In this document: in pieces, positions 34,591 through 57,874 of the stretch | How positions within the stretch are numbered: position 1 is the stretch's first letter | Layout of the letters: every line of letters begins with the position of its first letter | From: an uncultured delta proteobacterium | GTDB taxonomy: Bacteria; Desulfobacterota; BSN033; UBA1163 | Length of the DNA: 64,000 nt | NCBI GenBank assembly: GCA_963827685.1 | Contig: CAWHBU010000003.1 | Span: 416,001-480,000 of the forward strand | Direction: 5' to 3' | Notes under the pieces: generated by a model | The model's input: only the letters and a program-made list of their open reading frames with translations | What the model was told of the DNA's origin: nothing | Databases searched by the model: none | Made by a program: the position numbers and the translations under genes

Positions 34591-34732
34591 ATAGGATTAA
34601 ATGTTTGTTTATCATCACTATGGGCTAAGCGTTTTCGGGTGCTCATTATATCAGCTTCGTTTTGCTTTGTAAACTTTTTGTTTGATTTTTCAATTGTCGG
34701 ATCTATACAATTCTGATATAAATGAATTCATT

Positions 34733-36265
34733 ATGTTGGCAAGGGTCTTGAGCAGTGCAGTTTTTGGAATTGATGCCTACGTCGTAGAGGTGGAGGTAGA
34801 CATCGCTCAGGGTCTACCTACCTTTGCAACCGTTGGGCTTCCTGAGGGGGCAGTGAAGGAATCCAAGGACAGGGTCAAGGCAGCGGTCAAGAACTGCGGC
34901 TATGACTTTCCCGCTCGAAGGATTACTGTCAATCTGGCTCCAGCCGATATCAAGAAGGAAGGCACCGCCTTCGACCTCCCCATGGCCATTGGCATCCTGG
35001 CCGCGACGGAGGTCGTTCAAAAGGGAAAACTCTCTCAATATTTCATTTTGGGGGAGCTCTCCCTCGACGGACAGGTCAAGCCGATCAAAGGGACGCTTCC
35101 GATTGCGGTGGCGGCAAGAGATGCCGACCTCAAAGGGATCCTTCTGCCCAGGGAGAACTCTAAAGAAGCAGCCGTGGTGAAAGGGATTGATATCCTTCCT
35201 CTGGATACTCTTTCGGATTGTGTTCAATTCTTAAACGGAAGCCTTCCTATCGATCCGGTTGCAGTGGATCTCGATGATATCTTCAAGACAGAAATGAATT
35301 ATCCGGTTGATTTTAACGATGTGAAGGGTCAGGAGCATGTGAAGCGTTGTCTGGAAGTGGCCGCCGCGGGGGGTCACAATGTCATTATGATCGGTCCACC
35401 TGGTTCTGGCAAAACCATGCTGGCCAAGAGATTCCCAACGATACTACCCGATATGAATTTTGAAGAAAGTCTTGAAACCACAAAGATCCATAGCGTTATG
35501 GGGTTGATCCCTCCGGACAATGCCCTGATTGTCACCCGACCGTTCCGTAGTCCTCACCACACGATCTCGGATGCAGGCCTCATTGGAGGAGGACAGATCC
35601 CGAAACCCGGAGAGGTGAGTCTTTCTCATAATGGGGTTCTTTTCTTGGACGAACTGCCCGAATTCAAGAAGAATGTTCTGGAGGTCATGCGCCAACCCTT
35701 GGAAGAGGAGAGGGTGACGATCTCTCGGGCAGCCACCTCCCTCACCTACCCTGCCCGCTTTATGCTGGTCGGTGCTATGAACCCCTGCCCGTGCGGTTAT
35801 TATAGTGACCCCAACAATGAATGCACTTGCACCATTCCGCAGATCCAGCGTTACCGATCCAAGATCTCCGGTCCGTTGATGGATCGAATCGATATTCATA
35901 TTGAAGTCCCCGCAGTGAAGTATCGCGACCTGGCGAGTCGTGAACCAGGAGAGTCTTCCAGGGAAATGAAGAAACGGATCGATGCGGCCAGAAAGACCCA
36001 GCTCAATCGTTTCAAAGGGCTGAAGATCTACTGCAATGCGCAGATGACGAACCGCCATATCAAGAAGTTTTGCCAGATCGATGAGGCGAGCCAGAAATTA
36101 TTAGAATTGGCCATTGATAAGTTTGGATTAAGTGCCAGGGCTTATACACGCATCCTAAAGGTGGCCCGGACCATTGCCGATTTGGAAGGCCAGGAGAATA
36201 TCCAGCCCGCCCACCTCTCCGAAGCGATTCAATACAGAAGTCTGGATAGGAATTTGATTTCGTAA
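34733..36265 (+). CDS. comM: ComM/YifB Mg-chelatase-like AAA+ helicase
   Basis: [51 protein letters not shown]. Confidence 0.95.
36206..36265 (+). repeat. comM 3'-end direct repeat, copy 1 (in gene)
   Basis: 60 bp encoding [19 protein letters not shown]. Confidence 0.95.
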
Positions 36266-36596
36266 GAATACCTCCGCTTGCTTCTCCAATCACAACATTC
36301 CTATTTAGAGACGGCTTCTACTCTTTCGGGAAATGACAAACAAAAGAAAGATAAGTTATAATCCATTAAATTTAAAGGATCCCTCAATCAATAAACTAAT
36401 AACAATACAGACCATTTACTAAGGAATACATAATTAAGAAGACATATTTTTCTGAAAATCCCCCCTAACCCCTCTTTGCCTGTATAATGACAGGAAAAGG
36501 ATTACCAAAGAGGGAAATTCCTCTCTTTCATAAAAAGCGGGGAAGGAGGGATTTAGTCTCCAGTGTCTGCATAATTATCGACTGACTAATAAGATA

Positions 36597-38159
36597 ATGA
36601 CCGAATCTCTTGATCTCCTTTTCATTCATGTACCCAAATTCTCCAATTTCTACCGTCCCTTCGGCGAGTATATGACCGTCAATCTCCTTCCCATGGGAAC
36701 CCTGTCCCTTGCTGATCTTGGCGCACAAAAAGGATATAAGACCAGAATCTTACATTTGGGTCTGGAGTGGATCGAAAAGAAAGTCTCCTCGCCCCTCGTC
36801 TATTTGAAGGATAAGGAGATCGGGGTGGTTGCAATCCCGCTCCACTTTCACCCGCAGTCCTATGAGGTAATGAGAATCGCCAAAGAGATAAAAGAGAAGA
36901 GACCGGATATTACCATCCTATCGGGTGGGTACACTGCCAGTCTCTTTCATCAAGAGATTATGACTTCTTCTCCTCAGATCGATGCCGTCATCCGCGGCGA
37001 TGCTGAAACCCCTCTCATCGAGTTGATGAATGCTGTGAAAGAAGGAAGGGAATGGGAAAACATTCCCAATCTCACCTGGAGAAAGGATGGAGAGATCAGG
37101 GAAAATCCTCTCTCCTATGTGGCCTCAGAAGACGATTTGGGTCGATCCTCCTATACCAATCTTTCTCTGCTCCATGACAAGGAGACTTATATTCACTATA
37201 TCGGAATGCCTTTTATCTGGGCCAAAGGGCTTTCCAAAGAAAGGAACAGACGATACTTTCATCTTGGCCCTCCTCTCTTCCCTCTCAATATCGGCAGAGG
37301 ATGTTTTGGAAACTGTACCTGGTGCGGAGGCGGTGCAGAGGCCCAGCAAAGAGTCAATCGCAGAAAGGGAGTGGTTTTCCGCTCACCGGAAGCTGTCGCC
37401 AACACGGTGGCCGAAGCGCTCGAATTAGGTTACGAGATGTTCAATATGGCCTTTGATCCTGGGAAAGAAGGAGAAAGATATTATCTAGAATTATTTCCCC
37501 TATTGAGAAGAAAGAAGCTTCGAGCAAAAGTTTACTTTGAATCTTTCTCTCTCCCTTCGGAGCGCTTCTTCCGGGAATTCGCTGACACCTTCACTCTCGA
37601 TGGCTCGATGATCGCCCTCTCTCCTGAGTCCGGAGATGAAAGCGTGAGGCATCGAAACAAGACATTCACTTACTCCAACGAGGAATTGATGAAAGCCATT
37701 TCCTTGGCAGAAAGGTTTAGGATCAGAACAGATCTCTTCTTTGCCATGGGAATACCCGGGGAAAGATATTCTGATTTATTTAAGACCTCTGCATTGAGAA
37801 GAGAGATCAAGAGAAGGTTTAAAAATATAGGAAGGATCTGGTCTGCTCCAATATCCCTGGAACCTGCCTCTCCCTGGCACCTCCACCCGGAGGAGTTCGG
37901 CATCGTTTCGACGAAGCAGACCTTTGCTGACTTCTACCAGAGCAATTCTCCCGGACGTGGAGGATTGGGCTACTCCATCCCTGACTATATGGGAGATGGA
38001 AAGGAATTGAGCCCACAGGATTTTGAGAAGATCTTAAGGGAGACCAAGTGTCGGGACTTCTGTTCCTTTCATCCCAATCCGGTGAAAGCCAGCGATCCCT
38101 TTTGGGGGAGACTCTTCTGTCGGTACATGAGCTGGCGTTCGAGAGGTGGCCGTGGCTAA
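36597..38159 (+). CDS. B12-binding radical SAM enzyme
   Basis: N-terminal cobalamin-binding fold (LPMGTLSLA, GGYTAS, IRGDAE), CFGNCTWC motif. Confidence 0.88.
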   Translation: MTESLDLLFIHVPKFSNFYRPFGEYMTVNLLPMGTLSLADLGAQKGYKTRILHLGLEWIEKKVSSPLVYLKDKEIGVVAIPLHFHPQSYEVMRIAKEIKEKRPDITILSGGYTASLFHQEIMTSSPQIDAVIRGDAETPLIELMNAVKEGREWENIPNLTWRKDGEIRENPLSYVASEDDLGRSSYTNLSLLHDKETYIHYIGMPFIWAKGLSKERNRRYFHLGPPLFPLNIGRGCFGNCTWCGGGAEAQQRVNRRKGVVFRSPEAVANTVAEALELGYEMFNMAFDPGKEGERYYLELFPLLRRKKLRAKVYFESFSLPSERFFREFADTFTLDGSMIALSPESGDESVRHRNKTFTYSNEELMKAISLAERFRIRTDLFFAMGIPGERYSDLFKTSALRREIKRRFKNIGRIWSAPISLEPASPWHLHPEEFGIVSTKQTFADFYQSNSPGRGGLGYSIPDYMGDGKELSPQDFEKILRETKCRDFCSFHPNPVKASDPFWGRLFCRYMSWRSRGGRG

Positions 38160-39399
38160 AGTCAACCCTTCAACTCCCCAACCTGAAGGTCAGGCCTCTC
38201 TCAGGGTTAACCCTGAACGGGTTAATTTTGTAGATGGAACCTTGAGAGAGGGTGAGCAGTCTCCTGGCGTATACTTCACCAAGGAGGAGAAGATTCAAAT
38301 TGCCCAGGAATTGAACCGAATCGGTGTGCCCATTCTCGACGTGGGAATGCCGTCGATATCTGCCGAGGAGCGGGAAGCCATCTCTGCCGTCGCCCACCAG
38401 GGGCTCAAGGCATCCATCGGAGTATCCATCCGGCTTAAAAGGGATGAGGTGGACCAGGCTTTTGAATGCGGTGTTAAGGAAGTCTTCCTGATCTGCCCTG
38501 TGAGCTCCCTCCATATACGTTCAAAGCTCGGATTGGATGAAGAGGGAGTGAAGAGGCTATCTGAGGATACGGTTCGATATGCCTGCCAGAAAGGACTTCT
38601 GGTCAATCTGGTGGCCGAAGATGCCTCACGGGCTGAAATTTCATTTCTCTGCGAAATCCTTCTTCATACCTATCACTGGGGAGCTCAAAGGGCTTTTATT
38701 TGCGACACCGTGGGAGTGATGGAACCTTTTAAAATGAAGGACCTGGTCAAAAAAGTGAGAGATCAAATTCCACAGGAAATGGAGTTGGGTGTCCACTGTC
38801 ACAACGATCTCGGTCTTGCCGCAGCCAATACCTTAGCGGGCATAGAGGCTGGGGTAAATTATCCGTCGGTCACTGTCAATGGGATTGGCGAACGGGCAGG
38901 GAATGCCTCCCTTCATGAGATCGTCATGGCTCTGGAGAAGATCTTCCATCGGAAACATGGGATTGATATGCAAAGGCTTTATGACATCTCCCAGCTCGTG
39001 GAGCAGTGCTCGGGGATCTTCATCCCTCCTCATGCCCCGATCATCGGACTCAATGCCTTTCGCCACGAATCGGGTATCCATGTGGATGGCCTTCTTAAAA
39101 ACAACGAAACATATGCAGTGGTCGATCCAAAAGAGGTGGGAAGGGCTTCCTCTTTCGTCCTGGGAAAACACACAGGCACGCAGGCCATCCTGCACCTTTT
39201 ACAACAGAGGGGGTATGAAGCAAACGGGGAGGAATTGAGGGAGATTCTGTGGAGGGTTAAAGAGAAAAAGATAGCAAAAGGAAAGGTGGAGATCGATCGA
39301 ATGGTGAAAGAGATAGGGAAGTATTATGAACAGTCTCTCAATTTTCCGTTGGAAGCCTTCTGGGGGATTGTAAAAGAGGTTTTAAAGAAAGATGAGTAA
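38146..39399 (+). CDS. Homocitrate/isopropylmalate synthase family (NifV/AksA-like)
   Basis: DGTLREGEQSPG, HCHNDLG, GIGERAGNA, HESGIH; no LeuA regulatory domain. Confidence 0.9.
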   Translation: MAVAKVNPSTPQPEGQASLRVNPERVNFVDGTLREGEQSPGVYFTKEEKIQIAQELNRIGVPILDVGMPSISAEEREAISAVAHQGLKASIGVSIRLKRDEVDQAFECGVKEVFLICPVSSLHIRSKLGLDEEGVKRLSEDTVRYACQKGLLVNLVAEDASRAEISFLCEILLHTYHWGAQRAFICDTVGVMEPFKMKDLVKKVRDQIPQEMELGVHCHNDLGLAAANTLAGIEAGVNYPSVTVNGIGERAGNASLHEIVMALEKIFHRKHGIDMQRLYDISQLVEQCSGIFIPPHAPIIGLNAFRHESGIHVDGLLKNNETYAVVDPKEVGRASSFVLGKHTGTQAILHLLQQRGYEANGEELREILWRVKEKKIAKGKVEIDRMVKEIGKYYEQSLNFPLEAFWGIVKEVLKKDE

Positions 39400-40639
39400 G
39401 GGATATACTGGTCAAATCATTCAGAGACATGCGGATGGGAAAAGGGAGGGCGAATACCTTTCCGTCAATGTCGATTTCGTTCTTTTGCCCGACCCAACCT
39501 TTGCTCTTCTCCTCTCGGAAATGAAAACACTGGGAAGCAAGATCTGGGATAAGAAGAGGGTCTTCGTTACAGTCGATCACTTTGCACCTCCCTCAACAAT
39601 CGAACGAGCCAATATAGCCAAGGCAGTCATCTCCTTTGCCATGGAGGAAGAGATGCCCAACCATTCCATCTACCAGGGAATCTGCCACCAGCTCCTGGTG
39701 GAGGGCGCTTGGTTAAAGCCGGGGATGTTAGTCCTTGGGGCCGACTCACACACAACAACTGCCGGAGCTCTTGGCTGTTTGGCAACGGGTATGGGTTCTA
39801 CGGATATTCTCTATACACTCGTTACAGGAAAGACGTGGCTCAGGCCTCCTGACGCAGTACGAATCAATCTCAAGGGAAAACTTCCTCCTTATATCATGGG
39901 AAAGGACATTATCCTGGAACTTCTTGGAAGATATGGAGAAGGGGGATTTCTCTATCAAGCTCTCGAGTTTTATGACATGGATGGAGTCATCTCAATGGAT
40001 GACAGGTTTGCCATCTGTAATATGGTGGTTGAGGGAGGAGCGAAGAACGGGCTCTTTAACCCTGACAGGGTGACCCGGAGATATTTAGAGAAGAGGGATG
40101 GCCATTTCGACGATTGGAGAGATAGCTTCGATGGAGAACCTCCCTACACAATAAGGATGGAGATTGATCTCTCCACACTTCATCCGAAGGTAGCGCTTCC
40201 TCATAGCCCTGCTCAAGGAGTGGATGTTGATGACATCAAAGACGAGGTCATCCAGCAGGTTTTCATCGGCTCGTGCACAGGCGGAAGGCTCAGGGATCTG
40301 GAATGGACAGCTCGCCTCCTTCGGAAAAAGAAGATCGCTCCAGGGATGAAACTCCTCATCTCGCCGGCCTCACAGAAGATCTACCAGGAGGCTATCCAAA
40401 AAAGGTACATTCAAACGATCCTGGAAGCAGGCGGAGTGATTCTCAACCCGAGCTGTGGTCTATGCGGAGGCATCGATAAAGGGATTCTTGGAGCCGGGGA
40501 AAAATGTCTGAGCACTTCCAATAGAAACTTTCAGGGCAGGATGGGAGATCCCTCTTCCAGAATCTACCTCGCTTCTCCTCTCACTGCGGCAGCCTCTGCT
40601 CTGGCAGGGAGGATCATGGATCCAAGAGAGGTGATGTAA
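39392..40639 (+). CDS. Homoaconitase/isopropylmalate dehydratase large subunit
   Basis: GICHQ, GADSHT, IGSCTGG, PSCGLC, STSNRNF. Confidence 0.92.
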   Translation: MSKGYTGQIIQRHADGKREGEYLSVNVDFVLLPDPTFALLLSEMKTLGSKIWDKKRVFVTVDHFAPPSTIERANIAKAVISFAMEEEMPNHSIYQGICHQLLVEGAWLKPGMLVLGADSHTTTAGALGCLATGMGSTDILYTLVTGKTWLRPPDAVRINLKGKLPPYIMGKDIILELLGRYGEGGFLYQALEFYDMDGVISMDDRFAICNMVVEGGAKNGLFNPDRVTRRYLEKRDGHFDDWRDSFDGEPPYTIRMEIDLSTLHPKVALPHSPAQGVDVDDIKDEVIQQVFIGSCTGGRLRDLEWTARLLRKKKIAPGMKLLISPASQKIYQEAIQKRYIQTILEAGGVILNPSCGLCGGIDKGILGAGEKCLSTSNRNFQGRMGDPSSRIYLASPLTAAASALAGRIMDPREVM

Positions 40640-41154
40640 TGGGTCTTCCCAAAAGGATCACAGGTCGGGTCTGGAAATTGGGGGACCATATCAATACAGA
40701 CATCCTCCACCCTTCACCCTACTTCAGCCTGAACGAGGCGAGAGTGAATGAGGGTTTGGTTGAAGGGATGGAGAGACTGGGCAGGAATGCAAAAAAGGAT
40801 TCACCTGATGAAGAAATCATCATCGTTGCCGGGGAGAACTTCGGTTGTGGTTCGAGCCGTGAGACTTCGGTGAGAGGATTGAGAAGCGTTGGTGTCAGAG
40901 GAGTGGTAGCCAAATGTTTTGCCAGAATCTTTTTCCGGAGTCTGGCCAACCTCGGCCTCCCAGCCCTTGAGTGCCGAGACATCCAGGAAAGGGTGATGGA
41001 TGGAGATTCAGTCCTCCTTTCCATTGAAGAAGGATGGGTTGAACTGATGGATAAGAGACGTTTTCCTTTTTCTCCCATCGACACCCACATCAAAAAGATC
41101 TTAGAGGCCGGGGGGCTTATCCCCTACCTTCGGAGGGAGAGGGATGAGAGATGA
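40639..41154 (+). CDS. Homoaconitase/isopropylmalate dehydratase small subunit
   Basis: INTDI, GENFGCGSSRE, FARIF. Confidence 0.92.
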   Translation: MGLPKRITGRVWKLGDHINTDILHPSPYFSLNEARVNEGLVEGMERLGRNAKKDSPDEEIIIVAGENFGCGSSRETSVRGLRSVGVRGVVAKCFARIFFRSLANLGLPALECRDIQERVMDGDSVLLSIEEGWVELMDKRRFPFSPIDTHIKKILEAGGLIPYLRRERDER

Positions 41155-42373
41155 GATATGACCGGGATGTGATTGTGGTGGGAGGAGGGCCCGCAGGCTC
41201 AATGCCGCCATCAGAGCCCGATGGGTCAAGAGATACAAGGTCATCCCTTGTAGCACCCTTCTGGTTGAAAACTCCTACCTCGGTGGCTTGGCGAGCTGGC
41301 AGGGATGTCTCTTTACTGGCCCCTCATGGAAGATAAAGGGAAAAGATATTGTCCATCGCCTCCTGAAGGATATAAAGAGTCTGGAGATAGGAGTCCATCA
41401 GGGAAGAGTAAACCGGATCAACCTCCAGGGCGAAATAAAGGAGGTCTTCACCTCCGATGGAAAGGTCTTCCGCTCATTAGCAGTGATCATTGCCACCGGG
41501 ATTAAGGTCCTTGTCAACGAGAGAGACTATCTTGGCCGCGGTCTTGAAGTGACCAGTATGGGTTATGAATTTATCGTCTCTCATCTCAGGAAACTTCTCA
41601 GCAAAAGGTGGAAACCGAGACTGGTCATCGTGGGAAGTTCCAAGCTACGAAATCTTATCCCCTTGATTAAAGATCTAAACACCGGTCGATTTCCCCTCCT
41701 ATTCGTCATAGAAGGAAATGGGGAAGGACAGGGAGAAGAAAACGGAGACATCGTTCGAGGCTGGGTGGAAAGATATTGGGGGAATGAACAGCTTCAGGGA
41801 TTAACCCTTCAAACACCCAATGGGACTCGTAAAATAACATGCGGGAAAGTCCTCTTAGATTTTAACTCCTACGAACTTACACCTATCTGGCGGTTAGGGA
41901 TAGCGACTGAGGATACGAGTTCCCCTTTTATCAAAGTGGATCAGGATATGCAGACAACCATTCCAGGTTTATTCGCTGCTGGAGATGCGACTTCAGGTGG
42001 TTACAACTCTTTCTCCAGGGCAGTCTCCCAGGGGATCGCTGCAGGTCTGAGCGCTTACCGTTATGTCTATCAAAAGAAATTCGGCGTCTCTCCACCACTC
42101 TTTGCCTATCGGCCGACAGATTTTCTTATTTCATCCCACTTCCAGGAGCTTCCTTCTCTGGATGAAAAGCTTCTTCCAATGTCCTTGGTTTCCAAAAAAG
42201 AGATTAAGGCTGCCTTAGGGAAAGGCTGGTCATGGTTAGAAGAGAATCTTCGAGGGAGGTCCTCTATTCAGAAAATGGCTGAAGAGAGAAAAATCCCTTT
42301 AGAAGATTTCAAGAGGGTGTTAGTCCATTTAGTTGAAAAGAAGATGATCACCTTCCATATTGATCGAATGTGA
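41151..42373 (+). pseudogene. TrxB-like FAD oxidoreductase with a 1-nt frameshift near 41197 (or a sequencing error)
   Basis: VIVVGGGPAG in one frame continues as LNAAIRARWVK... in the frame of ORF 41288-42373; TTIPGLFAAGD motif. Confidence 0.8.
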
Positions 42374-42398
42374 ATCCTCCCTGGGGTTAATGTTTTTT

Positions 42399-42454
42399 GT
42401 AGCGTCGGCATTTAATGCCGACGGGATTTCGCCCCCAATAAATGGGGGCGCTAC
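42399..42454. repeat. GTAG-type REP doublet (REPIN-like)
   Basis: GTAG-CGTCGGCA-TTTAA-TGCCGACG then inverted GCCCCCA-ATAAA-TGGGGGC-GCTAC. Confidence 0.65.
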
Positions 42455-42509
42455 TACGAATTTTCTCCCCTTTAGAAGAGGAGGGGATGGGGGATATGGA
42501 GATAGAAGA

Positions 42510-43628
42510 ATGAAGGAGTTGCCCAAAGAGATACTGGATCTTGACGAAATGATCCTGTCCTATATCCGGAGGGGTGCGGATCATCGGGACTCAGAAGAGT
42601 TCAATCGCCTTGCCCTCCGGGTCTTCGATCTCCAGTTTAAATATATCTCTATCTACAGACGTTACTGCGAGAAGCGTGGGAAAAACCCGGAGAATATTTC
42701 TTCTTGGGACCAGATTCCCGCTCTCCCCACAGATGCCTTCAAAGTAATGGAGCTCGCCATGCTTCCCTCCCATACGGTGCGGACTTTTATGACCAGCGGG
42801 ACGACAAATCCCGAGGAAAGGGGAAAAGTCAATTATGATGAAGGAGGACTCAGGCTCATGGACGCCACCATTTATGAAGCCGCCTCTGTCTTCCTCTTTC
42901 CCGACCGAATTAAGACAACCATTCTGATCATCGCTCCCTCCCCTGATATCGTCCCCTATATGATTATGGCCTATGGGATGAATCGATTGAAGAACAATTT
43001 TGGATCCCCCCAGAGTCGTTTTCTTATAGGCAAGGAAGGCTTCGACATTAGCGTACTGATTGATGAGCTACGCCGTTCTGAAACAGAGGGTTTTCCAATA
43101 ACGATCTGCGGGGCCTCTTTCGGCTTTGTCAATGTCTTCGATACCTGCCGTGAGAGGAATGTAAAGTTCAGACTTCCCCCAGGTTCTCGCACGCTCGACG
43201 CCGGAGGATTTAAAGGAAAAAGCAGAGAAGTGAAACGAGATGAGTTCGTCAACGATTGTGAGGAATTCCTCGGGATCGCAAAGGACTATTGTATTAATCT
43301 TCTGGGAATGACAGAAATCAGCTCTCAGTTTTATGACAATACCTTGAGGAATGCCCATAAGGGAATGAATATCCCAAAAGCCAAGATCAACCCTCCCTGG
43401 ACAAGAACCCTGGTGGTCGATCCGGATACCCTGGAACCTCTTCCCCCAGGAAAGATCGGTCTGCTCCGACACTTTGACCTTGCTAATAGAGGGCATATCC
43501 TGGCCGTTCAGACCGATGACCTGGGAAGAATAACTTCAGAAGGGTTTGAGATCTATGGTAGGACCAAAGAAGGTGAGGCAAGAGGCTGTTCTTTGACGAT
43601 CGATGAGATGACCCAAATAAGAACTTGA
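42510..43628 (+). CDS. LuxE-like acyl-protein synthetase
   Basis: IPALPTDAFK, FMTSGTT, GGFKG, GMTEISSQ, QTDDLG, ARGCS; start at MKELPK. Confidence 0.85.
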   Translation: MKELPKEILDLDEMILSYIRRGADHRDSEEFNRLALRVFDLQFKYISIYRRYCEKRGKNPENISSWDQIPALPTDAFKVMELAMLPSHTVRTFMTSGTTNPEERGKVNYDEGGLRLMDATIYEAASVFLFPDRIKTTILIIAPSPDIVPYMIMAYGMNRLKNNFGSPQSRFLIGKEGFDISVLIDELRRSETEGFPITICGASFGFVNVFDTCRERNVKFRLPPGSRTLDAGGFKGKSREVKRDEFVNDCEEFLGIAKDYCINLLGMTEISSQFYDNTLRNAHKGMNIPKAKINPPWTRTLVVDPDTLEPLPPGKIGLLRHFDLANRGHILAVQTDDLGRITSEGFEIYGRTKEGEARGCSLTIDEMTQIRT

Positions 43629-43699
43629 AGGTAGAACGTGGAATGTAGAGTGTAGTCTTAACAATCAGTCTATAATTGTATAGACACTCGCCCCTGTTT

Positions 43700-43811
43700 T
43701 GTCATTCCTGGCTTGACCAGGAATCCAGTCTTTTCTCTGGATTCCCGCTCCCCGATCAGAGCCTGCCCCGGACTTGATCTGAGGTCGAGTACAAGCTTCG
43801 CGGGAATGAGA
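43700..43811. repeat. GTCATTCC...GGGAATGA palindromic MITE/REP with nested insert
   Basis: GTCATTCCTGG..CCAGGAATCCAG..CTGGATTCCCG..CGCGGGAATGA. Confidence 0.7.
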
Positions 43812-43894
43812 CTATGTCTTGCCAATTATGGACCCCTTAGTAACTACTTTCCACTCTCTACTGGCTACTCTCGAATTTATCAAAAGGAGATTTG

Positions 43895-45352
43895 ATGGAG
43901 ATCATCGAAGTAGATGCATACTACCTTCCTCCAGGTTTTAGGTCCCAGGTGAAAGACTTCAGAACCGAGGTCTATCAGGACGAAAACATCACGATTCATC
44001 TAAAAATCCCTCTGATCAGCAGATCTTTAGTCGAAACCCTGACCCATCAACTTAAGAAGAATAGAGAAGCATACCTCGCCAGCCTTCCTATTAAGCGTAT
44101 CATCGATGTCCTTGATGAGGCATCTAGGAAGTGGCTGGAAAGAGATTATCTGCTTCGGAATCTCGCGCTCAAGACCATACCTGCCATCACCCATTTCTCT
44201 CGTGAGGTGGTGGAGGCAAGTATCGATGTGGAGATGGAGAGTTCCTTGCGGGAGGACATCTGGCGTGCCCTCTGCTCTGAAATCAAAAATCCTCTCTTTC
44301 TTGATGATTTTCAATACTCCCCGGAGCTGGCGGGTTATAGCCGGGCTTTTGGCCCGAAGCTCATCATCTCCGTCTTCTCTGAGAATATTCCTGCCCTACC
44401 CCATCTCCTCTTCATGAGGGCGGCCCTTCTGAAGGCCGCTTGTCTGGGAAAAGTGGCCGCAGGAGAGCCGACCTTTGCTCCACTCTATCTCAAGACGATC
44501 GAAGAGATCGATCCGGATATGGCTGAATCCATGTCTGTCCTTTACTGGCGGGGAGGAGAAGAAGAGATTGAACAGGCAGCCTTTCATCAAGCCGATGCCG
44601 TCATCATGTTCGGCGGCGTAGAGGCTTGTGAATCCCTCAGAGAGAAGATCCCCCGGGGGGTGAAGGCTCTTCTCCATGGCCACAAGCTGGGCTTTGGAAT
44701 CATCGGCCGGAAGAGATTGTGTCGTCAAGGATTGGAGGAGCTGGCAGCCTCTGTTGCATACGATTGCTCTATGTTCGACCAACAGGCATGCCTCGCTCCC
44801 CATATCTATTATCTGGAAGCAGGGGGTGAGGTCTCTCCAAAAGAATTCTGCCAAACCCTGGCGGAAGCCATGGAGCGTTTAAATCTAAAGATGCCCAGAG
44901 GGAAGATTTCCCCCGGGGAGGCGTCGGCCATCCATCAGCTCAGAGCCAAGTATGAGTTCAGGGAGTTAAATGGCGAGGAAGTTCTGTTGATCGCCTCTCC
45001 CCATGGAACAGATTGGACGGTCATCTATGAAAAGGACCCAGGAATCTTCTCTCCCTCTTTGTTGAATCGTTTCATCCGGATCTGCGGGGTGGAAGATATC
45101 TTCCAGATACTGCCTCCCCTAAAGTCTATCGCTCCTTATTTGCAGAATGCAGCCGTGGCTATCAGGGATGAGCGTGAAAAGGACTTTATCAGGAGATTGG
45201 GGGAGTTGGGGTTGGCTCGAATTACTTCTCCTGGAAAGATGCCCGTCCCCTCCATGATGTGGCATCATGATGGAATTTCTCCTTTGGCCTCTTTGCTTCG
45301 ATGGTGTGATGTGGAGAAGAAGGATCGGGAAGGTGACACGGAAAAGAAATAA
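43895..45352 (+). CDS. LuxC-like acyl-CoA/acyl-protein reductase
   Basis: NIPAL, FGG, HGHKLGF, FDQQACLAP (catalytic Cys), WHHDG. Confidence 0.88.
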   Translation: MEIIEVDAYYLPPGFRSQVKDFRTEVYQDENITIHLKIPLISRSLVETLTHQLKKNREAYLASLPIKRIIDVLDEASRKWLERDYLLRNLALKTIPAITHFSREVVEASIDVEMESSLREDIWRALCSEIKNPLFLDDFQYSPELAGYSRAFGPKLIISVFSENIPALPHLLFMRAALLKAACLGKVAAGEPTFAPLYLKTIEEIDPDMAESMSVLYWRGGEEEIEQAAFHQADAVIMFGGVEACESLREKIPRGVKALLHGHKLGFGIIGRKRLCRQGLEELAASVAYDCSMFDQQACLAPHIYYLEAGGEVSPKEFCQTLAEAMERLNLKMPRGKISPGEASAIHQLRAKYEFRELNGEEVLLIASPHGTDWTVIYEKDPGIFSPSLLNRFIRICGVEDIFQILPPLKSIAPYLQNAAVAIRDEREKDFIRRLGELGLARITSPGKMPVPSMMWHHDGISPLASLLRWCDVEKKDREGDTEKK

Positions 45353-45374
45353 TCGAGAAGGAGAGAGAACAACC

Positions 45375-46550
45375 ATGCGTTATTCCATAGCAACCAATTG
45401 GGATTTCGGTTTACTGGAGAGGCTGGAGGGAACTTCTGTTCAAAGCCTCTACGGACAGATGTGGAACGACCCTCTGGGGGGCGGGCGGATGGCCCTCTTC
45501 ATTCCCAAAGTGGGAAAGAAAGAAGTGGCCTCCTTTATCGCCGAGGGGCGAAAGAGAGGTCTCAGTTTCAATTACCTCGTCAACGCCACCTGTTTTGATA
45601 ATCTGGAGTTCACCAAGAAGGGATATAAGAAGATCGTAGAGCACATCGAATGGATCTCCTCGACTGGGGCCAACATGGTCACGGTTACCCTGCCCTTCCT
45701 TCTCCAGATGGTAAAGAGGGATTTCCCGCACCTAAAGGTCTGCGTCTCCTCTTTTGCCCGTATCCAGAATATTCACCTCGCTCATTACTGGGAAGATTTG
45801 GGAGCGGATAAGATCATCCTTCCCGAACTGATTGGCCGTGATTTTCGGGCCCTGCGCTCCATCCGGGAGGCCGTCGATTGCGAGCTTGAGCTGATCGCCA
45901 ATCACTGCTGCCTCTTTCAATGTCCTCTCGATCTCCACCATCGGAATATGGTTTCCCATGGCTCGCAGGAGGGTCATCCATGCGGAGGTTTCGCACCGGA
46001 CTACTGCAAGCTTGCCTGCCAGCGCCTGAAGCTGTTTCGGCCTGCTGAATTGATCAAGTCCCGCTGGATACGGCCTGAGGATGTGTCCGATTACGAGGTC
46101 ATGGGAATAGACTGTTTGAAGCTCATAGAGAGATTCAGGGGAACGGAAAGCTTAGTTCAGATTCTCAATGCCTATGAGCGAAAAAGCTATAAAGGAAATC
46201 TGGTGGAGCTCTTGTCACTCCCCCAGCAAGGAGCCTTCCTATCACCCAATATGGAAGTCCTCCAACGAACCGACCTCATCGAGCCTGAGGTTATGGAAGA
46301 AGCGATGGAAGTCCTCAAGGAGCCTTTTCCCGGAAAAGTCTTTATCGACAACTCGAAGCTGAACGGCTTTCTCGACTATTTCAAAAAAACCGACTGCTTT
46401 CACACAGATTGCAACCGCTGCGGTTATTGTGAACAGATGGCTTCCAAGGCTGTCTCCATTGATGAAGAATGGAGAAAAGAGATGATTTCCAGATTTGAGA
46501 AGGCCATAGATATCTTAATCACAGGAGAGATCGCTGGTTTCGGACAATAA
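45375..46550 (+). CDS. U32 family Fe-S protein
   Basis: FNYLVNATC, ELIANHCCLFQCP, YCKLAC, WIRPED, LKLIER, C-terminal CxxxxCxxCxxC. Confidence 0.85.
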   Translation: MRYSIATNWDFGLLERLEGTSVQSLYGQMWNDPLGGGRMALFIPKVGKKEVASFIAEGRKRGLSFNYLVNATCFDNLEFTKKGYKKIVEHIEWISSTGANMVTVTLPFLLQMVKRDFPHLKVCVSSFARIQNIHLAHYWEDLGADKIILPELIGRDFRALRSIREAVDCELELIANHCCLFQCPLDLHHRNMVSHGSQEGHPCGGFAPDYCKLACQRLKLFRPAELIKSRWIRPEDVSDYEVMGIDCLKLIERFRGTESLVQILNAYERKSYKGNLVELLSLPQQGAFLSPNMEVLQRTDLIEPEVMEEAMEVLKEPFPGKVFIDNSKLNGFLDYFKKTDCFHTDCNRCGYCEQMASKAVSIDEEWRKEMISRFEKAIDILITGEIAGFGQ

Positions 46551-46683
46551 ACCCCGTTAGAAACTCCAGTCGTTGCGACTCGAAACCGAGCGGGGCATTA
46601 AACCCTGCCGGAATTATTCTAAAATCTAACCCCGCTACAGCGGGACTGCAGAGCAGCGGAGCATTATTTCTAACGGGGTAAAC
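46548..46683. mobile_element. MITE with CCCCGTTAGAAA...TTTCTAACGGGG terminal inverted repeats, copy 1
   Basis: Perfect TIR, TAAAC on both sides, homologous to 52234-52362. Confidence 0.8.
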
Positions 46684-46754
46684 GGACATAAACCATCAGC
46701 CTCGGTAGGACGCCAGGAACCCTTCATTGATAAGAAGGTCAGAAAAACTTTTTA

Positions 46755-46814
46755 CCCGCCCACCTCTCCGAGGCGATTCAATACCGCAGCTTAGATAGGA
46801 ACCTTATTGCCTGA
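46755..46814 (+). repeat. comM 3'-end direct repeat, copy 2
   Basis: Encodes [19 protein letters not shown]. Confidence 0.95.
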
Positions 46815-46889
46815 CGATAGAAAATTCGATTCTATTTACAAATCGATAAAAAATCTCTATATTATAGGTAAATACAGGAGGAACGAACG

Positions 46890-47120
46890 GTGAGAACAGA
46901 AAATCTCAAGACAAGGGCAAAGAGATTGCTTGATCATTTGTCGGAGGATAAGGCAAAAGCAGCTGTTTCCTTTTTGGAATTTTTGGAAGAGAAAGAGTGT
47001 TGGGAAGCCACCAAAGAAATTCTTAAGGATAGAATATTGATGACAAGCATCCAAAAGGGAAAAGAAGACATTGCTAAAGGGAGAGTGAAGCCTTGGAGAG
47101 AGGTCAAAAAAAATGTTTGA
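46890..47120 (+). CDS. Antitoxin
   Basis: 76 aa, GKEDIAKGRVKPWREV C-terminus, overlaps the toxin; TTTACA-17-TATATT promoter at 46835-46863. Confidence 0.75.
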   Translation: MRTENLKTRAKRLLDHLSEDKAKAAVSFLEFLEEKECWEATKEILKDRILMTSIQKGKEDIAKGRVKPWREVKKNV

Positions 47121-47373
47121 GGTTTATCTCTCCCACGAAGCAGAGAAAATCTACCTCAAGGCCAATCCGAAGACAACCCGATTGCTTGATCATTGTTTTA
47201 AAAATCTCGAAGACTCACCTTTGTTTGGGCCGAATATCAAGCGTCTAAAAGGTGGACTTGAAGGGAGTTTCCGTTACCAAATGGGAGGACTGCGAGTCAT
47301 CTATAGCGTGGATATAGAATTAAAGAAAATTTTTATCGAAACCATTGGCCCCAGAGGGGATGTATATAAATAA
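47113..47373 (+). CDS. RelE/ParE family toxin
   Basis: IKRLKG, FRYQMGGLRVIYSVD, IGPRGDVYK. Confidence 0.88.
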   Translation: MFEVYLSHEAEKIYLKANPKTTRLLDHCFKNLEDSPLFGPNIKRLKGGLEGSFRYQMGGLRVIYSVDIELKKIFIETIGPRGDVYK

Positions 47374-47397
47374 AAATGATGATTAAAGAGTCTCCAA

Positions 47398-47457
47398 CCC
47401 GCCCACCTCTCCGAGGCGATTCAATACCGGACTTTAGATCGAAACCTCATTTCCTGA
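47398..47457 (+). repeat. comM 3'-end direct repeat, copy 3
   Basis: Encodes [19 protein letters not shown]. Confidence 0.95.
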
Positions 47458-47466
47458 CCGCCCCCC

Positions 47467-47928
47467 TCATACCATTTCCGGTTTCAGAAGCCAGTCCACT
47501 GCCCATCTTCCGGGCTCCTTCTTTTCCAGACATAAGATGGCGCTGTATCGAAACAGGACGGCCTTTGAACCCTCGTCCCCGCAAACAAGAAAGGAGGCAA
47601 GCTTCTCCAAGAACGGCAGGTGGCCGACAACCATCAGGTCCTCCGCCTCTCTGGATATCCGTTCGACCCACGGACGGACGTCATCGTTCGGATTGAGCCC
47701 CTGGCCAACCTGAGCAGACAGACCTAAAGCCTTCGCAACGATCCCAGCGGTCTGCTCGGCCCTCCTCTTCCCGCTGTGATAGATTCTTGAAGGACGAATG
47801 CCCAGCCTTTTTGCGGCGCTAGAGATTTCGCTCGTCTCCTCTTCTCCTCTAACTGTCAGTGAGCGTTCCGGATCTTCAGCTTCGGACCTGGCCTCTCCGT
47901 GCTGCATGAGATAGAGTCTCACAGACAT
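47467..47928 (-). CDS. sixA: Phosphohistidine phosphatase
   Basis: LYLMQHGEA, HSGKRRAEQTA, VGHLP. Confidence 0.9.
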   Translation of the reverse strand: MSVRLYLMQHGEARSEAEDPERSLTVRGEEETSEISSAAKRLGIRPSRIYHSGKRRAEQTAGIVAKALGLSAQVGQGLNPNDDVRPWVERISREAEDLMVVGHLPFLEKLASFLVCGDEGSKAVLFRYSAILCLEKKEPGRWAVDWLLKPEMV

Positions 47929-54598: not shown

Positions 54599-55345
54599 AT
54601 GAAATCTCAACTTATGAAATTACCACTCCAATTAAGATCGAAGTGGGTTTGGATCACTTGTCTTTTAGTAGGACTCATTATACTTCTCATTTATCTATAC
54701 AACTCGCAACTGTGGATTCAAGCCGTTAAACTTTGGAATCTCTTCCAGGATCGTCACCAATTAAAAGTAGTTCTCAGATCCTACGGGCCATATTCTCCTC
54801 TGGTTTTTATCCTTCTCCAAATTATACAAGTGGTTATTGCTCCCATTCCGGGAGAAGCCATTGAGTTTTTGGGAGGTTACATTTTTGGGGTTTGGGGTGG
54901 GATGGTTTATTCCATGATCGGGCTGATATTGGGTTCTTGGTTTGCCTTCAGTATAGCAAGGATCTTTGAAAAGCGGGCTGTCGAGAAGTTTGTTTCGCCA
55001 AAGCTGAGAAAAAAATTTGATTATTTAATTGGACATGAGGGGGTTATCCTCAGTTTTCTTCTTTTTTTGATCCCAGGCTTTCCAAAGGATGCCTTGTGCT
55101 ACATCTTAGGTTTGACGCCGATGCATTGGGGAATTTTTCTCATCATCTCGACCATTGGGAGGATACCCGGAACATTGATGGCAACACTTCAGGGCGCAAA
55201 GGCCTTTGATCAACAATACGTAACCCTATTAATCCTGTTGGGGATATCTGCTCTGATCATTTTGGTCTTTTATATCTACCACGAGAACATTCATCAATGG
55301 ATTAAAAAAAGGAGTAAAGCAGGCATTCAGAAGAAAAGTGTATAG
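54599..55345 (+). CDS. TVP38/TMEM64 (DedA/VTT) family membrane protein
   Basis: QVVIAPIPGE, LFLIPGFPKDALCY, GRIPG. Confidence 0.88.
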   Translation: MKSQLMKLPLQLRSKWVWITCLLVGLIILLIYLYNSQLWIQAVKLWNLFQDRHQLKVVLRSYGPYSPLVFILLQIIQVVIAPIPGEAIEFLGGYIFGVWGGMVYSMIGLILGSWFAFSIARIFEKRAVEKFVSPKLRKKFDYLIGHEGVILSFLLFLIPGFPKDALCYILGLTPMHWGIFLIISTIGRIPGTLMATLQGAKAFDQQYVTLLILLGISALIILVFYIYHENIHQWIKKRSKAGIQKKSV

Positions 55346-56264: not shown

Positions 56265-57122
56265 TTAAGTTTCATTAAGGAGCTTTTCATACTGCTCTGG
56301 GCTCCTGTACCCTAATGCCGAATGACTCCTCTGACGATTATAAAACACTTCCACGTACTCAAAAATACTAAGCCTCGCCTCCAGCCTTGAACGGTACCGC
56401 TCACCATGGACCAACTCCGTCTTGAGCGTGCCAAAGAAAGACTCCACATAGGCATTATCATAACAATTGCCACTTCTGCTCATACTAGGAGTCATGCCGT
56501 ATTCTCTTAAAAGCTCCTGATAGGCATAGCTTGCATACTGCCTGCCTCGATCAGAATGGTGGATCAACCCTTCAGAGGGGCTTTGCCTGCCCACCGCGTC
56601 CCTGAGCGCAGCAGAAGCTAGCTCCTGAGAGAGCTTATCGCTCATGGACAGCCCAATGATCTTTCTGCTTTTCACATTCATCACTGCTGCCACATAGAGC
56701 CATCCCTCAGAAGTGGGCACAAACGTAATATCAGATGCCCATACCCCCTCTGTCTGCCTCTGGTCAATCAGTAAGTTTGCAGCCAAGGCATAATGATGCC
56801 GTGAATCGGTAGTCCGCCTGAATCTCTTTTTCTTCACTTCTGCCCATATGGAGTGCTCTTTCATGATCCTGGCTACCCGGTTCTTCCCACATCTAAGACC
56901 CTGCTTATTGAGCTCCGCTGCGATCCGCGGACTCCCATAGAGCCTTCTGCTTTGAGTGTGGATCTCCCGTATGTGCCCCAGCAACTCCTCATCGTCTTTC
57001 TGACGTGTGCTCGGTTGACGCGTCTTCCACGCATAATAACCACTTCTGGATACCTTCAACACTTCACTCATACTCCTTATCTTGTAGGTCTCTCTGTGCT
57101 CTTCTATCAACCGATACTTCAT
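56265..57122 (-). CDS. IS3 transposase OrfB (DDE)
   Basis: WASDIT, HHSDRGRQY, DNAYVESFFGTLKTE. Confidence 0.95.
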   Translation of the reverse strand: MKYRLIEEHRETYKIRSMSEVLKVSRSGYYAWKTRQPSTRQKDDEELLGHIREIHTQSRRLYGSPRIAAELNKQGLRCGKNRVARIMKEHSIWAEVKKKRFRRTTDSRHHYALAANLLIDQRQTEGVWASDITFVPTSEGWLYVAAVMNVKSRKIIGLSMSDKLSQELASAALRDAVGRQSPSEGLIHHSDRGRQYASYAYQELLREYGMTPSMSRSGNCYDNAYVESFFGTLKTELVHGERYRSRLEARLSIFEYVEVFYNRQRSHSALGYRSPEQYEKLLNET

Positions 57123-57415
57123 CTGTTTCGTTTGGAGAATACGGCCAAGGCTTTTTTTAAAATGTCCCTCTCTTCCTTCACCTTTTCTAATTCCTTCCGG
57201 AGCCCCTTTATTTCCGCTTCCTCTGGCGTTACACGGCCCTTCCCTACGAAGGCTTTATCCCCTTTAGCTAAGAACCTCCTCCTCCATAGATGAAGAAGAT
57301 TGGGATGGATATCAAGCTCTCGGGCCACCTTGCCTACCGGCATCCCTTTCTCTGTGACCAACTGCACTGCATCTCGTTTGAACTCACGGCTGAAATGACG
57401 ATTCTTTTCCCCCAT
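57119..57415 (-). CDS. IS3 transposase OrfA (HTH)
   Basis: FSREFKRDAV, ERDILKKA. Confidence 0.93.
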   Translation of the reverse strand: MGEKNRHFSREFKRDAVQLVTEKGMPVGKVARELDIHPNLLHLWRRRFLAKGDKAFVGKGRVTPEEAEIKGLRKELEKVKEERDILKKALAVFSKRNR

Positions 57416-57874
57416 ACGCACCTCCTGTCCAATGATACAAATTCTCAGGTGTGTCCATCAACTCGGGGGAAGGTCAATCCATAATCATTCATCTCTCACC
57501 CTTGTCAAGAGTAAAGACTCGTAGGTGAAGTCCTCATCTCCTTTTCTGAAGATAACTTCCTGAAAGAGTGATTCTTGGACGTTCCTTTAAGTTAGAAGAT
57601 TTCAGTCTTGAATCAATAAAGAGCGGGAAACGTTTTTCACATTTTTTAGGGAAGTAATTCAAGACTTTTGTGTAAATCTCTTCCCTTTTGACTTTCATTA
57701 AAATATTGAAGTTTGCAAAAGATAGAGTGGTTATGGAAGCTTATGATAATAGCCGAGACACGGCATCCAAAATGCAACTAAAAAACTTGTTACGGGATTG
57801 ATACGAAGGAACTGGGTCTACCTGCTAAAGCGATCACCAGGAGGAAAATATAGTCAACTAAGAAAGAAGCATCC

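Follow-up and report, generated by a model that had tools for sequence, protein, structure and literature searches.

A conserved, mobile eight-gene cluster at comM represents an uncharacterised anaerobic pathway built from known enzyme families

What kind of pathway, if any, is encoded by eight co-oriented genes that lie side by side in an island at comM and bring together enzymes of such different families? We address this question for a 64,000-nucleotide (nt) stretch of DNA from an uncultured delta proteobacterium related to sulfate reducers (assembly GCA_963827685.1, contig CAWHBU010000003.1, positions 416,001 to 480,000; hereafter, the window), whose + strand carries at 36597-46550, in this order, the genes of a cobalamin (B12)-binding radical S-adenosylmethionine enzyme (rSAM), an HMGL-type synthase, the large and small subunits of an aconitase-family isomerase, a flavoprotein, a LuxE-like protein, a LuxC-like protein and a U32 protein (Table 1). 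We find that this cluster is a real, widespread and uncharacterised anaerobic pathway, assembled from known enzyme families in a combination not found in print, and that the strictly anaerobic Thermodesulfobacteriota carrying it have it as a self-contained operon, laterally mobile and patchy in distribution. As to its chemistry, we tentatively favour an oxygen-independent biosynthetic route, hitherto uncharacterised, which would lead from an alkylmalate to an aldehyde and whose two modules are always inherited together.

A preliminary description of this DNA had already listed eight co-oriented genes of these families, the first five overlapping, and profile searches together with the listing of open reading frames (ORFs) uphold both the family calls and the layout: the first five genes overlap by 14, 8, 1 and 4 nt, where the 14-nt overlap presupposes a GTG start at 38146. 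Comparison with relatives set the starts of the flavoprotein gene, whose ATG (41151) overlaps the stop codon of the small-subunit gene, of the LuxE-like gene (ORF listed from 42360; relatives begin at Met 42510) and of the U32 gene (ORF listed from 45267; relatives begin at MRYSIATNW, which gives 45375). All island ORFs of at least 80 amino acids (aa) are accounted for, and, as the preliminary description had noted, none of them encodes a dehydrogenase of the Iso_dh (LeuB/AksF) type, a luciferase, LuxD, an acyl carrier protein (ACP) or a transporter; the space that is left holds a leader, with a promoter-like site in it, and two inserted repeats. No luxA, luxB or luxD ORF occurs in 36266-46733 or in the orthologous loci, so the cluster is not a lux operon. 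None of the eight proteins contains a hydrophobic span (maximum Kyte-Doolittle mean over 19 residues, 1.56), which fits enzymes acting on soluble metabolites.

Table 1. Features of the comM island and its borders, in coordinates of the window, with the eight cluster genes first.
Feature	Position	Strand	Basis or remark
Cobalamin-binding radical SAM enzyme, class B type	36597..38159	+	PF02310 39 bits (cut-off 32.1), PF04055 47 bits (29.5)
Short-form HMGL-type 2-oxoacid/acetyl-CoA Claisen synthase (putative substituted-malate synthase)	38146..39399	+	HMGL-like 251 bits, HCS_D2 74 bits
Aconitase-family isomerase/dehydratase large subunit (IPMI/homoaconitase type)	39392..40639	+	NF001614 466.9 (385), TIGR02086 444.3 (410.15), TIGR01343 430.8 (386)
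Aconitase-family small subunit (Aconitase_C), loop YFSL	40639..41154	+	TIGR02087 127.3 (cut-off 108.95)
TrxR-fold FAD protein with C-terminal helical extension, frameshifted	41151..42373	+	N-terminal frame stops at 41334-41336; remainder is ORF 41288-42373
LuxE-like acyl-protein synthetase (adenylating, self-acylating)	42510..43628	+	PF04443 93.7 bits (cut-off 24.9)
LuxC-like acyl-thioester reductase (aldehyde-forming)	43892..45352	+	PF05893 284 bits (cut-off 21)
U32-family Fe-S protein	45375..46550	+	PF01136 47.9 bits (cut-off 22.4)
comM (YifB-family Mg-chelatase-like AAA ATPase), insertion target, intact	34682..36265	+	TIGR00368 669.8 bits (cut-off 362.4); Mg_chelatase/ChlI/Mg_chelatase_C
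Direct repeat copy 1, 3' end of intact comM, left border	36185..36270	+	Reference copy of repeat family D1
Sigma-70-like promoter in 331-nt leader before first gene	36333..36362	+	ATGACA-18-TATAAT, 11/12 matches, consensus scan only
149-nt insertion between flavoprotein and LuxE genes	42361..42509	.	X4 contig skips 42361-42509
228-nt insertion between LuxE and LuxC genes	43637..43864	.	X3 contig skips 43637-43864
comM 3'-end repeat copy 2, right island border	46734..46819	+	73% identity to 36185-36270; tblastn ComM residues 502-527
Second mini-island, 0.6 kb, with ParE-like ORF 47113-47373	46820..47462	+	Ends in comM remnant copy 3 (47377-47462)

Evidence that these genes form a unit comes from their neighbourhoods in other genomes. 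When 185,579 species genomes were scanned with an rSAM alignment, 50 loci were obtained, some of which overlap the loci of the genomes given G handles below and are not independent of them. Nineteen loci with an rSAM of at least 56% identity were assessable, and in each of these the synthase gene follows the rSAM gene; 13 loci contain all eight genes in the same order. Scanning metagenome contigs with a flavoprotein alignment yielded 80 loci, in which the flavoprotein gene has its expected upstream neighbour in 59 of 61 assessable cases and a LuxE gene downstream in 46 of 47, the exceptions being L172 and the 1.1-kb locus L189. This conservation of neighbours is far beyond chance; the gene order recurs in every orthologous locus with enough contig, and the genes outside the eight vary between lineages. 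Of 401 genomes in one sample drawn evenly from the phylum, 13 had a LuxC-like gene (identity of at least 39%) and 12 had the synthase gene (E 1e-90 or better), all 12 among the 13; in the odd genome (G026), in which no synthase was found, the contig ends inside the flavoprotein gene. Co-occurrence elsewhere, which the preliminary description had named beforehand as a check, is thus strong. Near-identical DNA was also found in sediment, peat and wetland metagenomes of 14 studies, so the product may be common in anoxic sediments.

Within this set, two modules can be told apart. In genome G370, the first four genes (module A) lie on contig C3 and the last four (module B), together with a second U32 gene, on contig C1, so that the modules are co-inherited even when unlinked. 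Module A also stands apart from module B in L032, L033 and L107, where an MFS transporter gene and a YgiQ-type radical SAM gene follow and sigma-54 response regulators flank. In comparisons with three relatives, the ratio of nonsynonymous to synonymous divergence (dN/dS) is 0.07-0.30 for all eight genes, indicating purifying selection. Synonymous divergence (dS) itself is uneven: within a single pairwise comparison (versus L011, L012 or L016), adjacent genes differ in it by up to a factor of about eight. Against L011 it is 0.24 for the U32 gene and 1.47 for luxE, and against L012 the pattern is reversed, which suggests recombination between cluster variants. Orthologues occur in four of the 14 other genomes of the genus, and some copies are decaying, with L015 (G002:C8) broken into several frames with many stops and L013 (G005:C16) carrying a TAA inside luxC. 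One TGA in luxC and one in the synthase gene were seen in G089. In a second clade at 37-53% identity (L097, L098, L178, L181-L184 and L110, the last joined to L096), a second B12-rSAM gene comes first, followed by those of synthase, isomerase, rSAM, flavoprotein, LuxE and LuxC, and no U32 gene is adjacent; L191 is a third, more distant form. Two U32 paralogues lie side by side in L025, L034, L101, L150 and L157.

What might the enzymes of module A act on? The synthase (417 aa) consists of HMGL-like and HCS_D2 domains only, the regulatory C-terminal domain being absent; it keeps the metal-binding and catalytic motifs TLREGEQ and HxHxHND and is nearest to the biosynthetic models of isopropylmalate synthase (IPMS)/NifV type (1e-118) versus the aldolase/lyase branches (1e-24). 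Its best sequence match in the PDB is the homocitrate synthase 6ktq (231.5 bits), and it stays below every NCBIfam cut-off (NF002085 for IPMS, 396.3 against 517 bits; NifV, 393.5 against 462.9; LEU1_arch, 391.8 against 484.75; TIGR00973, 290.2 against 598.7). In an alignment to the Schizosaccharomyces pombe homocitrate synthase (SpHCS; 3ivs, whose numbering was checked by R43, E44 and Q47 falling at the expected chain positions), the columns of H103, R163 and S165, which we take to be the residues that bind the distal carboxylate of 2-oxoglutarate, hold S, N and V, and in the 18 aligned rows (window plus 17 orthologues) they hold S, N/D and V/A without exception. At four pocket positions of IPMS and MAM, presumably H97, S139, N167 and P169 in E. 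coli numbering, it has F, V, F and C, which are conserved in orthologues and show conservative changes in the second clade; V182, A253 and P255 of the Brassica MAM 6e1j occupy the same columns. The complete pocket set (S, F, N, V, F, C) would argue against 2-oxoglutarate and for a substrate with a small or hydrophobic side chain, and by pocket residues and cut-offs alike the enzyme falls outside both the homocitrate synthases (NifV/AksA/LYS20) and LeuA.

The isomerase gives a similar picture. Both subunits pass subfamily cut-offs of the isopropylmalate (IPM) isomerase/homoaconitase family and miss the substrate-specific equivalogs (HacB_Meth, 117.1 against 230 bits; leuD, 112.7 against 245.85; LEU2, 382.4 against 610.65). 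In alignments to 3vba, 1v7l and 2pkp, the loop of the small subunit reads YFSL, versus YLRT in the homoaconitase 2pkp and YLVY in the IPM isomerase 3vba, and it takes the form [YHFC]F[ST][LPM] in all 18 rows (again the window and 17 orthologues). We take this loop to mark specificity, YLRT standing for homoaconitase and YLVY or YLVM for IPM isomerase (IPMI).

The remaining enzyme of module A belongs to the class B radical SAM enzymes, its CX3CX2C motif (C236, C240, C243) being invariant in 14 of 14 aligned homologues. It is related to the B12_SAM_Ta0216 equivalog TIGR04190 without being a member (219.8 bits, cut-off 500), matches PhpK-type models in the B12 domain only (TIGR04479, 27.8 against 600; NF038361, 42.4 against 575) and has no sequence relative in the PDB at E 0.01 or better. 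The same genome contains a true TIGR04190 member (664.6 bits; G000:C3:1137485-1138996, in L111, G000:C3:1137465-1139240), flanked by a formate dehydrogenase operon with fdhE and by selA; this context hints at a link to selenoprotein or formate dehydrogenase maturation and gives no functional hint for the cluster. The idea that TIGR04190 is a ring synthase for glycerol dialkyl glycerol tetraethers was dropped, as no control genome, including that of Sulfolobus acidocaldarius, reaches the cut-off. An rSAM paralogue at 44-47% identity (L067, G000:C6:284000-302000; L035; L039) is always preceded by an amine-oxidase/phytoene-desaturase-like flavoprotein, and 4 kb from this pair G000 has a second one, a B12-rSAM with DUF4070 and a desaturase-like protein. 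The rSAM paralogue and its amine-oxidase-like flavoprotein are another conserved, uncharacterised pair.

In module B, the LuxE-like and LuxC-like proteins retain the cysteines on which their chemistry would depend. The sole PDB relative of the former is LuxE (7xc6_E, E 2.7e-16), with whose C-terminal GCSL its own GCSL aligns, kept in 20 of 20 rows (window plus 19 orthologues); the sole significant PDB relative of the latter is LuxC (7xc6_A, E 6.5e-20; the next, 1td6_A at E 0.17, is at chance level), with whose YDQQAC its FDQQAC aligns, the catalytic cysteine likewise being present in 20 of 20 rows. Both therefore belong to their families by Pfam cut-off and by the acyl-accepting or catalytic cysteine, and both miss the equivalogs by a wide distance (LuxE, NF052244, 66.8 against 550 bits; LuxC, NF052251, 86.9 against 750). 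The flavoprotein model (predicted local distance difference test score, pLDDT, 77) is closest to NADPH-dependent and ferredoxin-dependent thioredoxin reductases (FFTR) and to the TrxR-type FNR, with the helical C-terminal extension modelled confidently. It has the fold of a low-Mr thioredoxin reductase but does not qualify as one: the redox-active CxxC is absent from all 16 aligned rows, only a degenerate form of the second dinucleotide motif is present, and TIGR01292 matches the C-terminal part at 59.4 bits (cut-off 343.45). Two of its cysteines, C34 and C231, are invariant. The family is rare, with 58 representatives at E 1e-30 or better among 1.84 billion.

The last protein belongs to the U32 family by domain and fold, its model (pLDDT 91.6) being closest to the TIM barrel of the U32 protein Mk0906 (5d88; template modelling score, TM, 0.75; Foldseek E 1.1e-13), and reaches 22.5 bits with the TrhP model, whose cut-off is 534. 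C183, C215, C341, C346, C349 and C352 are invariant in 19 of 19 rows, and the C-terminal four form an extra CX4CX2CX2C motif (C341-x4-C346-x2-C349-x2-C352) outside the canonical four-cysteine motif, given as CX6CX15CX3/4C in the accessible part of Pelosi et al. (bioRxiv 10.1101/587956). For the O2-independent hydroxylation by UbiU/UbiV, the accessible part of PMC10990095 names prephenate as the oxygen donor, describes the electron acceptor as unidentified and an in vitro assay as likewise not known, and counts the majority of the twelve U32 subfamilies as uncharacterised. Paralogues of the cluster's U32 protein (about 34% identity) occur in L108 (G321:C12), in a methyltransferase-ACP-ketosynthase cluster, and in L109 (G071:C64), among MMPL-LolA-DUF1302-glycosyltransferase-DUF2141-desaturase-like genes; both loci resemble aryl-polyene or lipid-type clusters that include an oxygen-independent hydroxylase.

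A route that would employ all eight proteins can be outlined from these assignments. In module A, the synthase would join acetyl-CoA to a 2-oxo acid that is small or hydrophobic and is not 2-oxoglutarate. The resulting 2-substituted malate would be dehydrated and rehydrated by the isomerase to a 3-substituted malate or a substituted maleate, and the cobalamin rSAM would most likely methylate an unactivated carbon, either in the substrate or in the intermediate so formed. In module B, LuxE would adenylate a carboxylate and load it onto its own C-terminal cysteine; LuxC would take over the acyl group on its catalytic cysteine and reduce it to the aldehyde. The product of this step would be a substituted malate semialdehyde, from which ring closure could lead to a lactol or butenolide. 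If it works like the prephenate-dependent UbiU/UbiV, the U32 Fe-S protein may hydroxylate without O2, and the flavoprotein, with no redox disulfide, may carry electrons or reduce a double bond. Here we infer the substrate class, the order of the steps, the roles of the rSAM, U32 protein and flavoprotein, and the product. Since no oxidative decarboxylation step is encoded, either the chain would not be recycled as in leucine synthesis or a housekeeping LeuB would be borrowed. An unlinked, dedicated LeuB-type dehydrogenase was considered and rejected, the Iso_dh copy number in the genus not tracking the cluster, as was the pantoate route (3,3-dimethylmalate reduced at C4) as the purpose of the set, panB being present in 14 of 15 genus genomes regardless of the cluster.

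Several observations weigh against this malate-to-aldehyde route. Every chemical step in it is read from family membership, and the pocket roles are taken from the literature and were checked only via the expected residue types in PDB chains; the bulky F/F pair could equally suit an aromatic substrate or a small one, pyruvate for instance. Non-methylating reactions, too, are catalysed by class B rSAM enzymes. The second clade, with seven genes and a second B12-rSAM, has no adjacent U32 gene, so hydroxylation would not be universal to the pathway, and the conserved U32 cysteines C169, C179, C183 and C215 are spaced differently from the canonical motif. The U32 substrates named in the accessible part of PMC10990095 are aromatic or heteroaromatic rings, not aliphatic acids. 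Finally, paralogues of the cluster proteins, and one orthologue-level homologue, stand in lipid-type contexts (ACP and ketosynthase, MMPL, LolA, GDSL lipase, LpxL-like acyltransferase, DedA).

It is tempting to go one step further than the route itself. To our knowledge, the genetic evidence to date ties oxygen-independent hydroxylation by U32 proteins only to ubiquinone and two RNA modifications. The cluster might then be the first U32 hydroxylase system to act on a small metabolite that is neither quinone nor RNA, with its own redox partner, the disulfide-free TrxR-fold flavoprotein, as electron acceptor and with a new class of methylated, hydroxylated, alkylmalate-derived aldehyde or butenolide as product; we consider this full version distinctly unlikely. 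The flavoprotein is a candidate acceptor for U32 hydroxylation, yet it accompanies LuxE/LuxC also where no U32 gene adjoins. If this version were true, the product would be a signal, a metallophore or a head group, and the soluble enzymes could allow an in vitro assay of a U32 protein.

The lipid-type contexts suggest another use of the same enzymes, namely the assembly of a lipid or other hydrophobic natural product, in which LuxE/LuxC would reduce a fatty or long acyl carboxylate to an aldehyde, the rSAM would methylate or cross-link an alkyl chain, the U32 protein would hydroxylate a hydrophobic, possibly aryl, moiety, and synthase and isomerase would supply a branched primer or a polar head piece. 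The hydrophobic synthase pocket is consistent with such a product, and the only structural relatives of the LuxE/LuxC-like pair are true fatty-acid reductase subunits, although the equivalog scores given above reflect a low identity to them. Neighbouring genes point the same way in L099 (G205; LuxE-LuxC-SDR-U32-rSAM, the last at 41%, then MMPL transporter-DUF2229-BcrAD_BadFG), in L096 (LuxE-LuxC, then a GDSL lipase and more B12-rSAMs), in L049 (an rSAM paralogue and a U32 protein that shares 74% identity with that of the window, followed by ACP, acyltransferase, thioesterase and two B12-rSAMs), in L172 (LpxL-like acyltransferase-B12-rSAM-B12-rSAM-unknown-flavoprotein, the last at 61%) and beside the U32 paralogues of L108 and L109, and a DedA/VTT membrane gene follows the U32 gene in four loci (the window's own DedA gene at 54599-55345 is not an orthologue of it). 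The pairing of the rSAM paralogue with an amine-oxidase-like flavoprotein, in this genome and elsewhere, can be counted among these contexts. Most of them, however, belong to paralogues at 33-45% identity and not to the eight-gene unit, which itself brings no ACP, acyltransferase, lipid transporter, membrane protein or hydrophobic span, and a 2-oxoacid synthase with its isomerase has no known place in lipid assembly. We regard a lipid product as the most serious rival to the malate-to-aldehyde route, possible if on balance unlikely.

A biosynthetic direction, on which both the malate-to-aldehyde route and the lipid proposal rely, could itself be questioned: the set might serve catabolism or salvage in bacteria known to degrade aromatics and hydrocarbons, where a branched or aromatic dicarboxylate or aldehyde taken from the environment would undergo oxidation, hydration and, with the synthase working as a lyase, cleavage. 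The hosts (Syntrophaceae, Syntrophorhabdus and metagenome-assembled genomes of Desulfobacterales, from sediment, peat and wetland metagenomes) would suit this idea, as would the patchy, island-borne distribution familiar from many catabolic islands, the sigma-54 response regulators that adjoin the unit in four loci, the sigma-54-like promoter of L028 and the MFS transporter after module A in the split arrangement of L032 and L033. LuxE/LuxC chemistry, however, is ATP-driven and reductive and is not known to reverse, the synthase lies closest to the biosynthetic and not the lyase branches, a B12-rSAM would be costly for catabolism, and no CoA-transferase, beta-oxidation or ring-reduction genes are attached to the unit. 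A catabolic function therefore appears very unlikely.

The preliminary description had itself proposed a product, a methylated, hydroxylated, reduced (homo)citrate-like tricarboxylate made from 2-oxoglutarate by a homocitrate synthase and a homoaconitase. The NifV score nearly equals those of the IPMS models, the best PDB match is a homocitrate synthase and the large subunit passes the hacA_fam cut-off; these resemblances are outweighed by the unreached NifV cut-off, by the replacement of His, Arg and Ser of SpHCS in every aligned row, by the F/V/F/C pocket and by a YFSL loop without the Arg of YLRT, which make the proposal highly improbable. What survives of the earlier interpretation is its outline, a conserved anaerobic pathway, and not its homocitrate-like substrate; it had also missed the two separable modules, the U32, rSAM and flavoprotein paralogues in lipid-type clusters and the two repeat insertions. 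That synthase and isomerase are merely redundant paralogues from leucine, isoleucine or lysine synthesis beside unrelated genes is barely credible, despite the IPMI/HACN subfamily cut-offs passed by the isomerase subunits, given a canonical leuA-leuC-leuD locus elsewhere in the genome (35/42/37% identity; the genome has seven HMGL-like and three Iso_dh genes in all), which makes the island enzymes extra copies and not housekeeping ones, a synthase that fails all equivalog cut-offs with altered pocket residues, strict synteny and co-occurrence with LuxE/LuxC, and orthologues in so few congeners.

How the eight genes came to lie where they do is suggested by the borders of the island, whose bounding by comM the preliminary description had recognised. 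The 86-nt 3' end of the intact comM recurs at 46734-46819 and, 66% identical, at 47377-47462, with an exact core common to the copies, and both downstream remnants were also recovered by tblastn with ComM; because such repeats flank both sides, the gene set can be regarded as a cassette. The ORF of the adjoining mini-island (47113-47373) gives a weak ParE_toxin match (E 3.9e-4), below the Pfam cut-off. A fourth remnant lies at G000:C3:497881-497931, 18 kb past the window end, so that comM appears to be a hotspot at which several islands have piled up over about 45 kb. The 45 kb from comM to this fourth remnant yielded no recombinase of the tyrosine or serine type, only IS3 (56265-57421 and 62489-63645) and IS110 (58479-59672) transposases. 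The cluster also adjoins comM in two congeners, G010 and G005; a second remnant of the comM 3' end lies before the cluster in G010 and after it in G003, with none seen in G005, and in the close relatives L016 and L018 the cluster is located elsewhere than comM. Base composition is not anomalous, with a GC content of 0.494 in the island versus 0.468 (standard deviation 0.024).

The window's own copy may be crippled. Its flavoprotein gene reads MRYDRDVIVVGGGPAGS and leaves the frame after GGGPAGS, reaching a stop at 41334-41336, whereas relatives read GGGPAGLNAAIRA and are intact at 403-408 aa; the frameshift reported in the preliminary description is thus real in this sequence. The run at 41196-41197 is one G short: behind 41195, contigs from two further metagenomes (X3, X4) have an additional G, and the otherwise identical contigs of run X2 do not span 41155-41820. 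Since X2 leaves the site uncovered, the missing G may be either a recent strain mutation or a homopolymer error of the assembly. Two intergenic repeat insertions come on top. The 149-nt insertion carries a palindromic core of about 57 nt (42398-42454), with two hairpins between inverted GTAGCG/CGCTAC ends, which has 38 blastn-short matches in the genome besides itself (19 of 54-64 nt, the rest mostly 22-32-nt half-sites) and is the only part matched by many unrelated metagenome contigs; it looks like a repeat of the repetitive extragenic palindrome or miniature inverted-repeat transposable element (REP/MITE) type. The 228-nt insertion sits where relatives have a LuxE-LuxC gap of about 12 nt; its short repeats recur at four other places in the genome, and its terminator-like hairpin (43704-43724) could be polar on luxC and the U32 gene. 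Upstream of the cluster, the leader is conserved within the genus only, no Rfam match (riboswitch or other RNA) at E 1 or better occurs in 36000-47600, and no sigma-54 promoter was found in the window, such a site being seen only in L028.

Searches of the literature found no characterised pathway with this gene set, as the preliminary description had supposed: no paper joined LuxE and LuxC with a radical SAM enzyme and aconitase, or with U32, subscription journals not being covered. Nothing came up on TIGR04190 or Ta0216, and the combinations of LuxE-like with LuxC-like and of synthase with aconitase and radical SAM gave unrelated papers only. The cluster is one of many uncharacterised clusters of known enzyme families, and the surprise stays moderate pending the product. 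Its interest lies in a U32 gene embedded in a compact, soluble and strongly conserved eight-gene pathway with a cobalamin rSAM, a carboxylate reductase and a rare flavoprotein; we consider the trio of U32 protein, flavoprotein and B12-rSAM the most valuable handle. If the pathway were solved, it would add a new 2-oxoacid elongation branch with a new pocket and no dehydrogenase, give LuxE/LuxC homologues a function outside light production and provide a tractable model for studying U32 proteins and class B rSAM enzymes.

How does the cluster compare with systems already described? Like the chain-elongation modules (LeuA/LeuCD/LeuB, CimA, AksA/AksDE/AksF and plant MAM/IPMI), it places an HMGL-fold Claisen synthase before a two-subunit aconitase-type isomerase, in the same gene order, with the TLREGEQ and HxHxHND motifs kept and the isomerase subunits above family cut-offs. 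In contrast to them, no LeuB/AksF-type dehydrogenase occurs in the clusters seen and no extra Iso_dh in the carrier genomes, the regulatory C-terminal domain is missing, and the F/V/F/C pocket, the N in place of the homocitrate-synthase Arg and the YFSL loop set it apart. We know of only one natural-product logic in which an HMGL-type synthase works alongside an aconitase-type isomerase and a cobalamin rSAM methylase, that of the phosphinothricin/FR-900098-type modules (Pmms/FrbC, an aconitase-like isomerase and PhpK), which borrow their dehydrogenase from primary metabolism. From these the cluster differs in its rSAM, which PhpK-type models match in the B12 domain only; it contains no phosphoenolpyruvate (PEP) mutase gene, the rest of the genome not having been searched for one.

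A precedent for the kind of reduction envisaged for LuxC may be the proposed tetronate pathway, in which, reportedly according to Morona et al. (1995, Gene 166:19), a LuxC-like reductase acts on the distal carboxyl of a thioester derived from malate, so that a 2,4-dihydroxy acid results. The accessible part of PMC3441752 assigns five genes of Vibrio cholerae O1 to tetronate synthesis, by homology only. That system, which we liken to ours by description only, serves to decorate an O antigen and employs an ACP, an Fe-alcohol dehydrogenase and an acyltransferase, all of them missing from the cluster. With UbiU/UbiV (and UbiT), RlhA and TrhP, the cluster shares the U32 domain and TIM barrel, conserved cysteines and, in some loci, paired U32 genes; it differs from UbiU/UbiV in having no SCP2/UbiT partner and no quinone genes, in its cysteine spacing and added C-terminal CX4CX2CX2C, and in a substrate that is possibly not aromatic. 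With the LuxC-LuxE fatty-acid reductase (7xc6) it has in common the acyl-accepting cysteine of LuxE, the catalytic cysteine of LuxC and the adjacency of the two genes. It departs from the luminous bacteria in its lack of luxA, luxB and luxD, its equivalog scores far below cut-off and its strictly anaerobic host lineage, and its LuxE/LuxC-like pair is always joined to the TrxR-fold flavoprotein.

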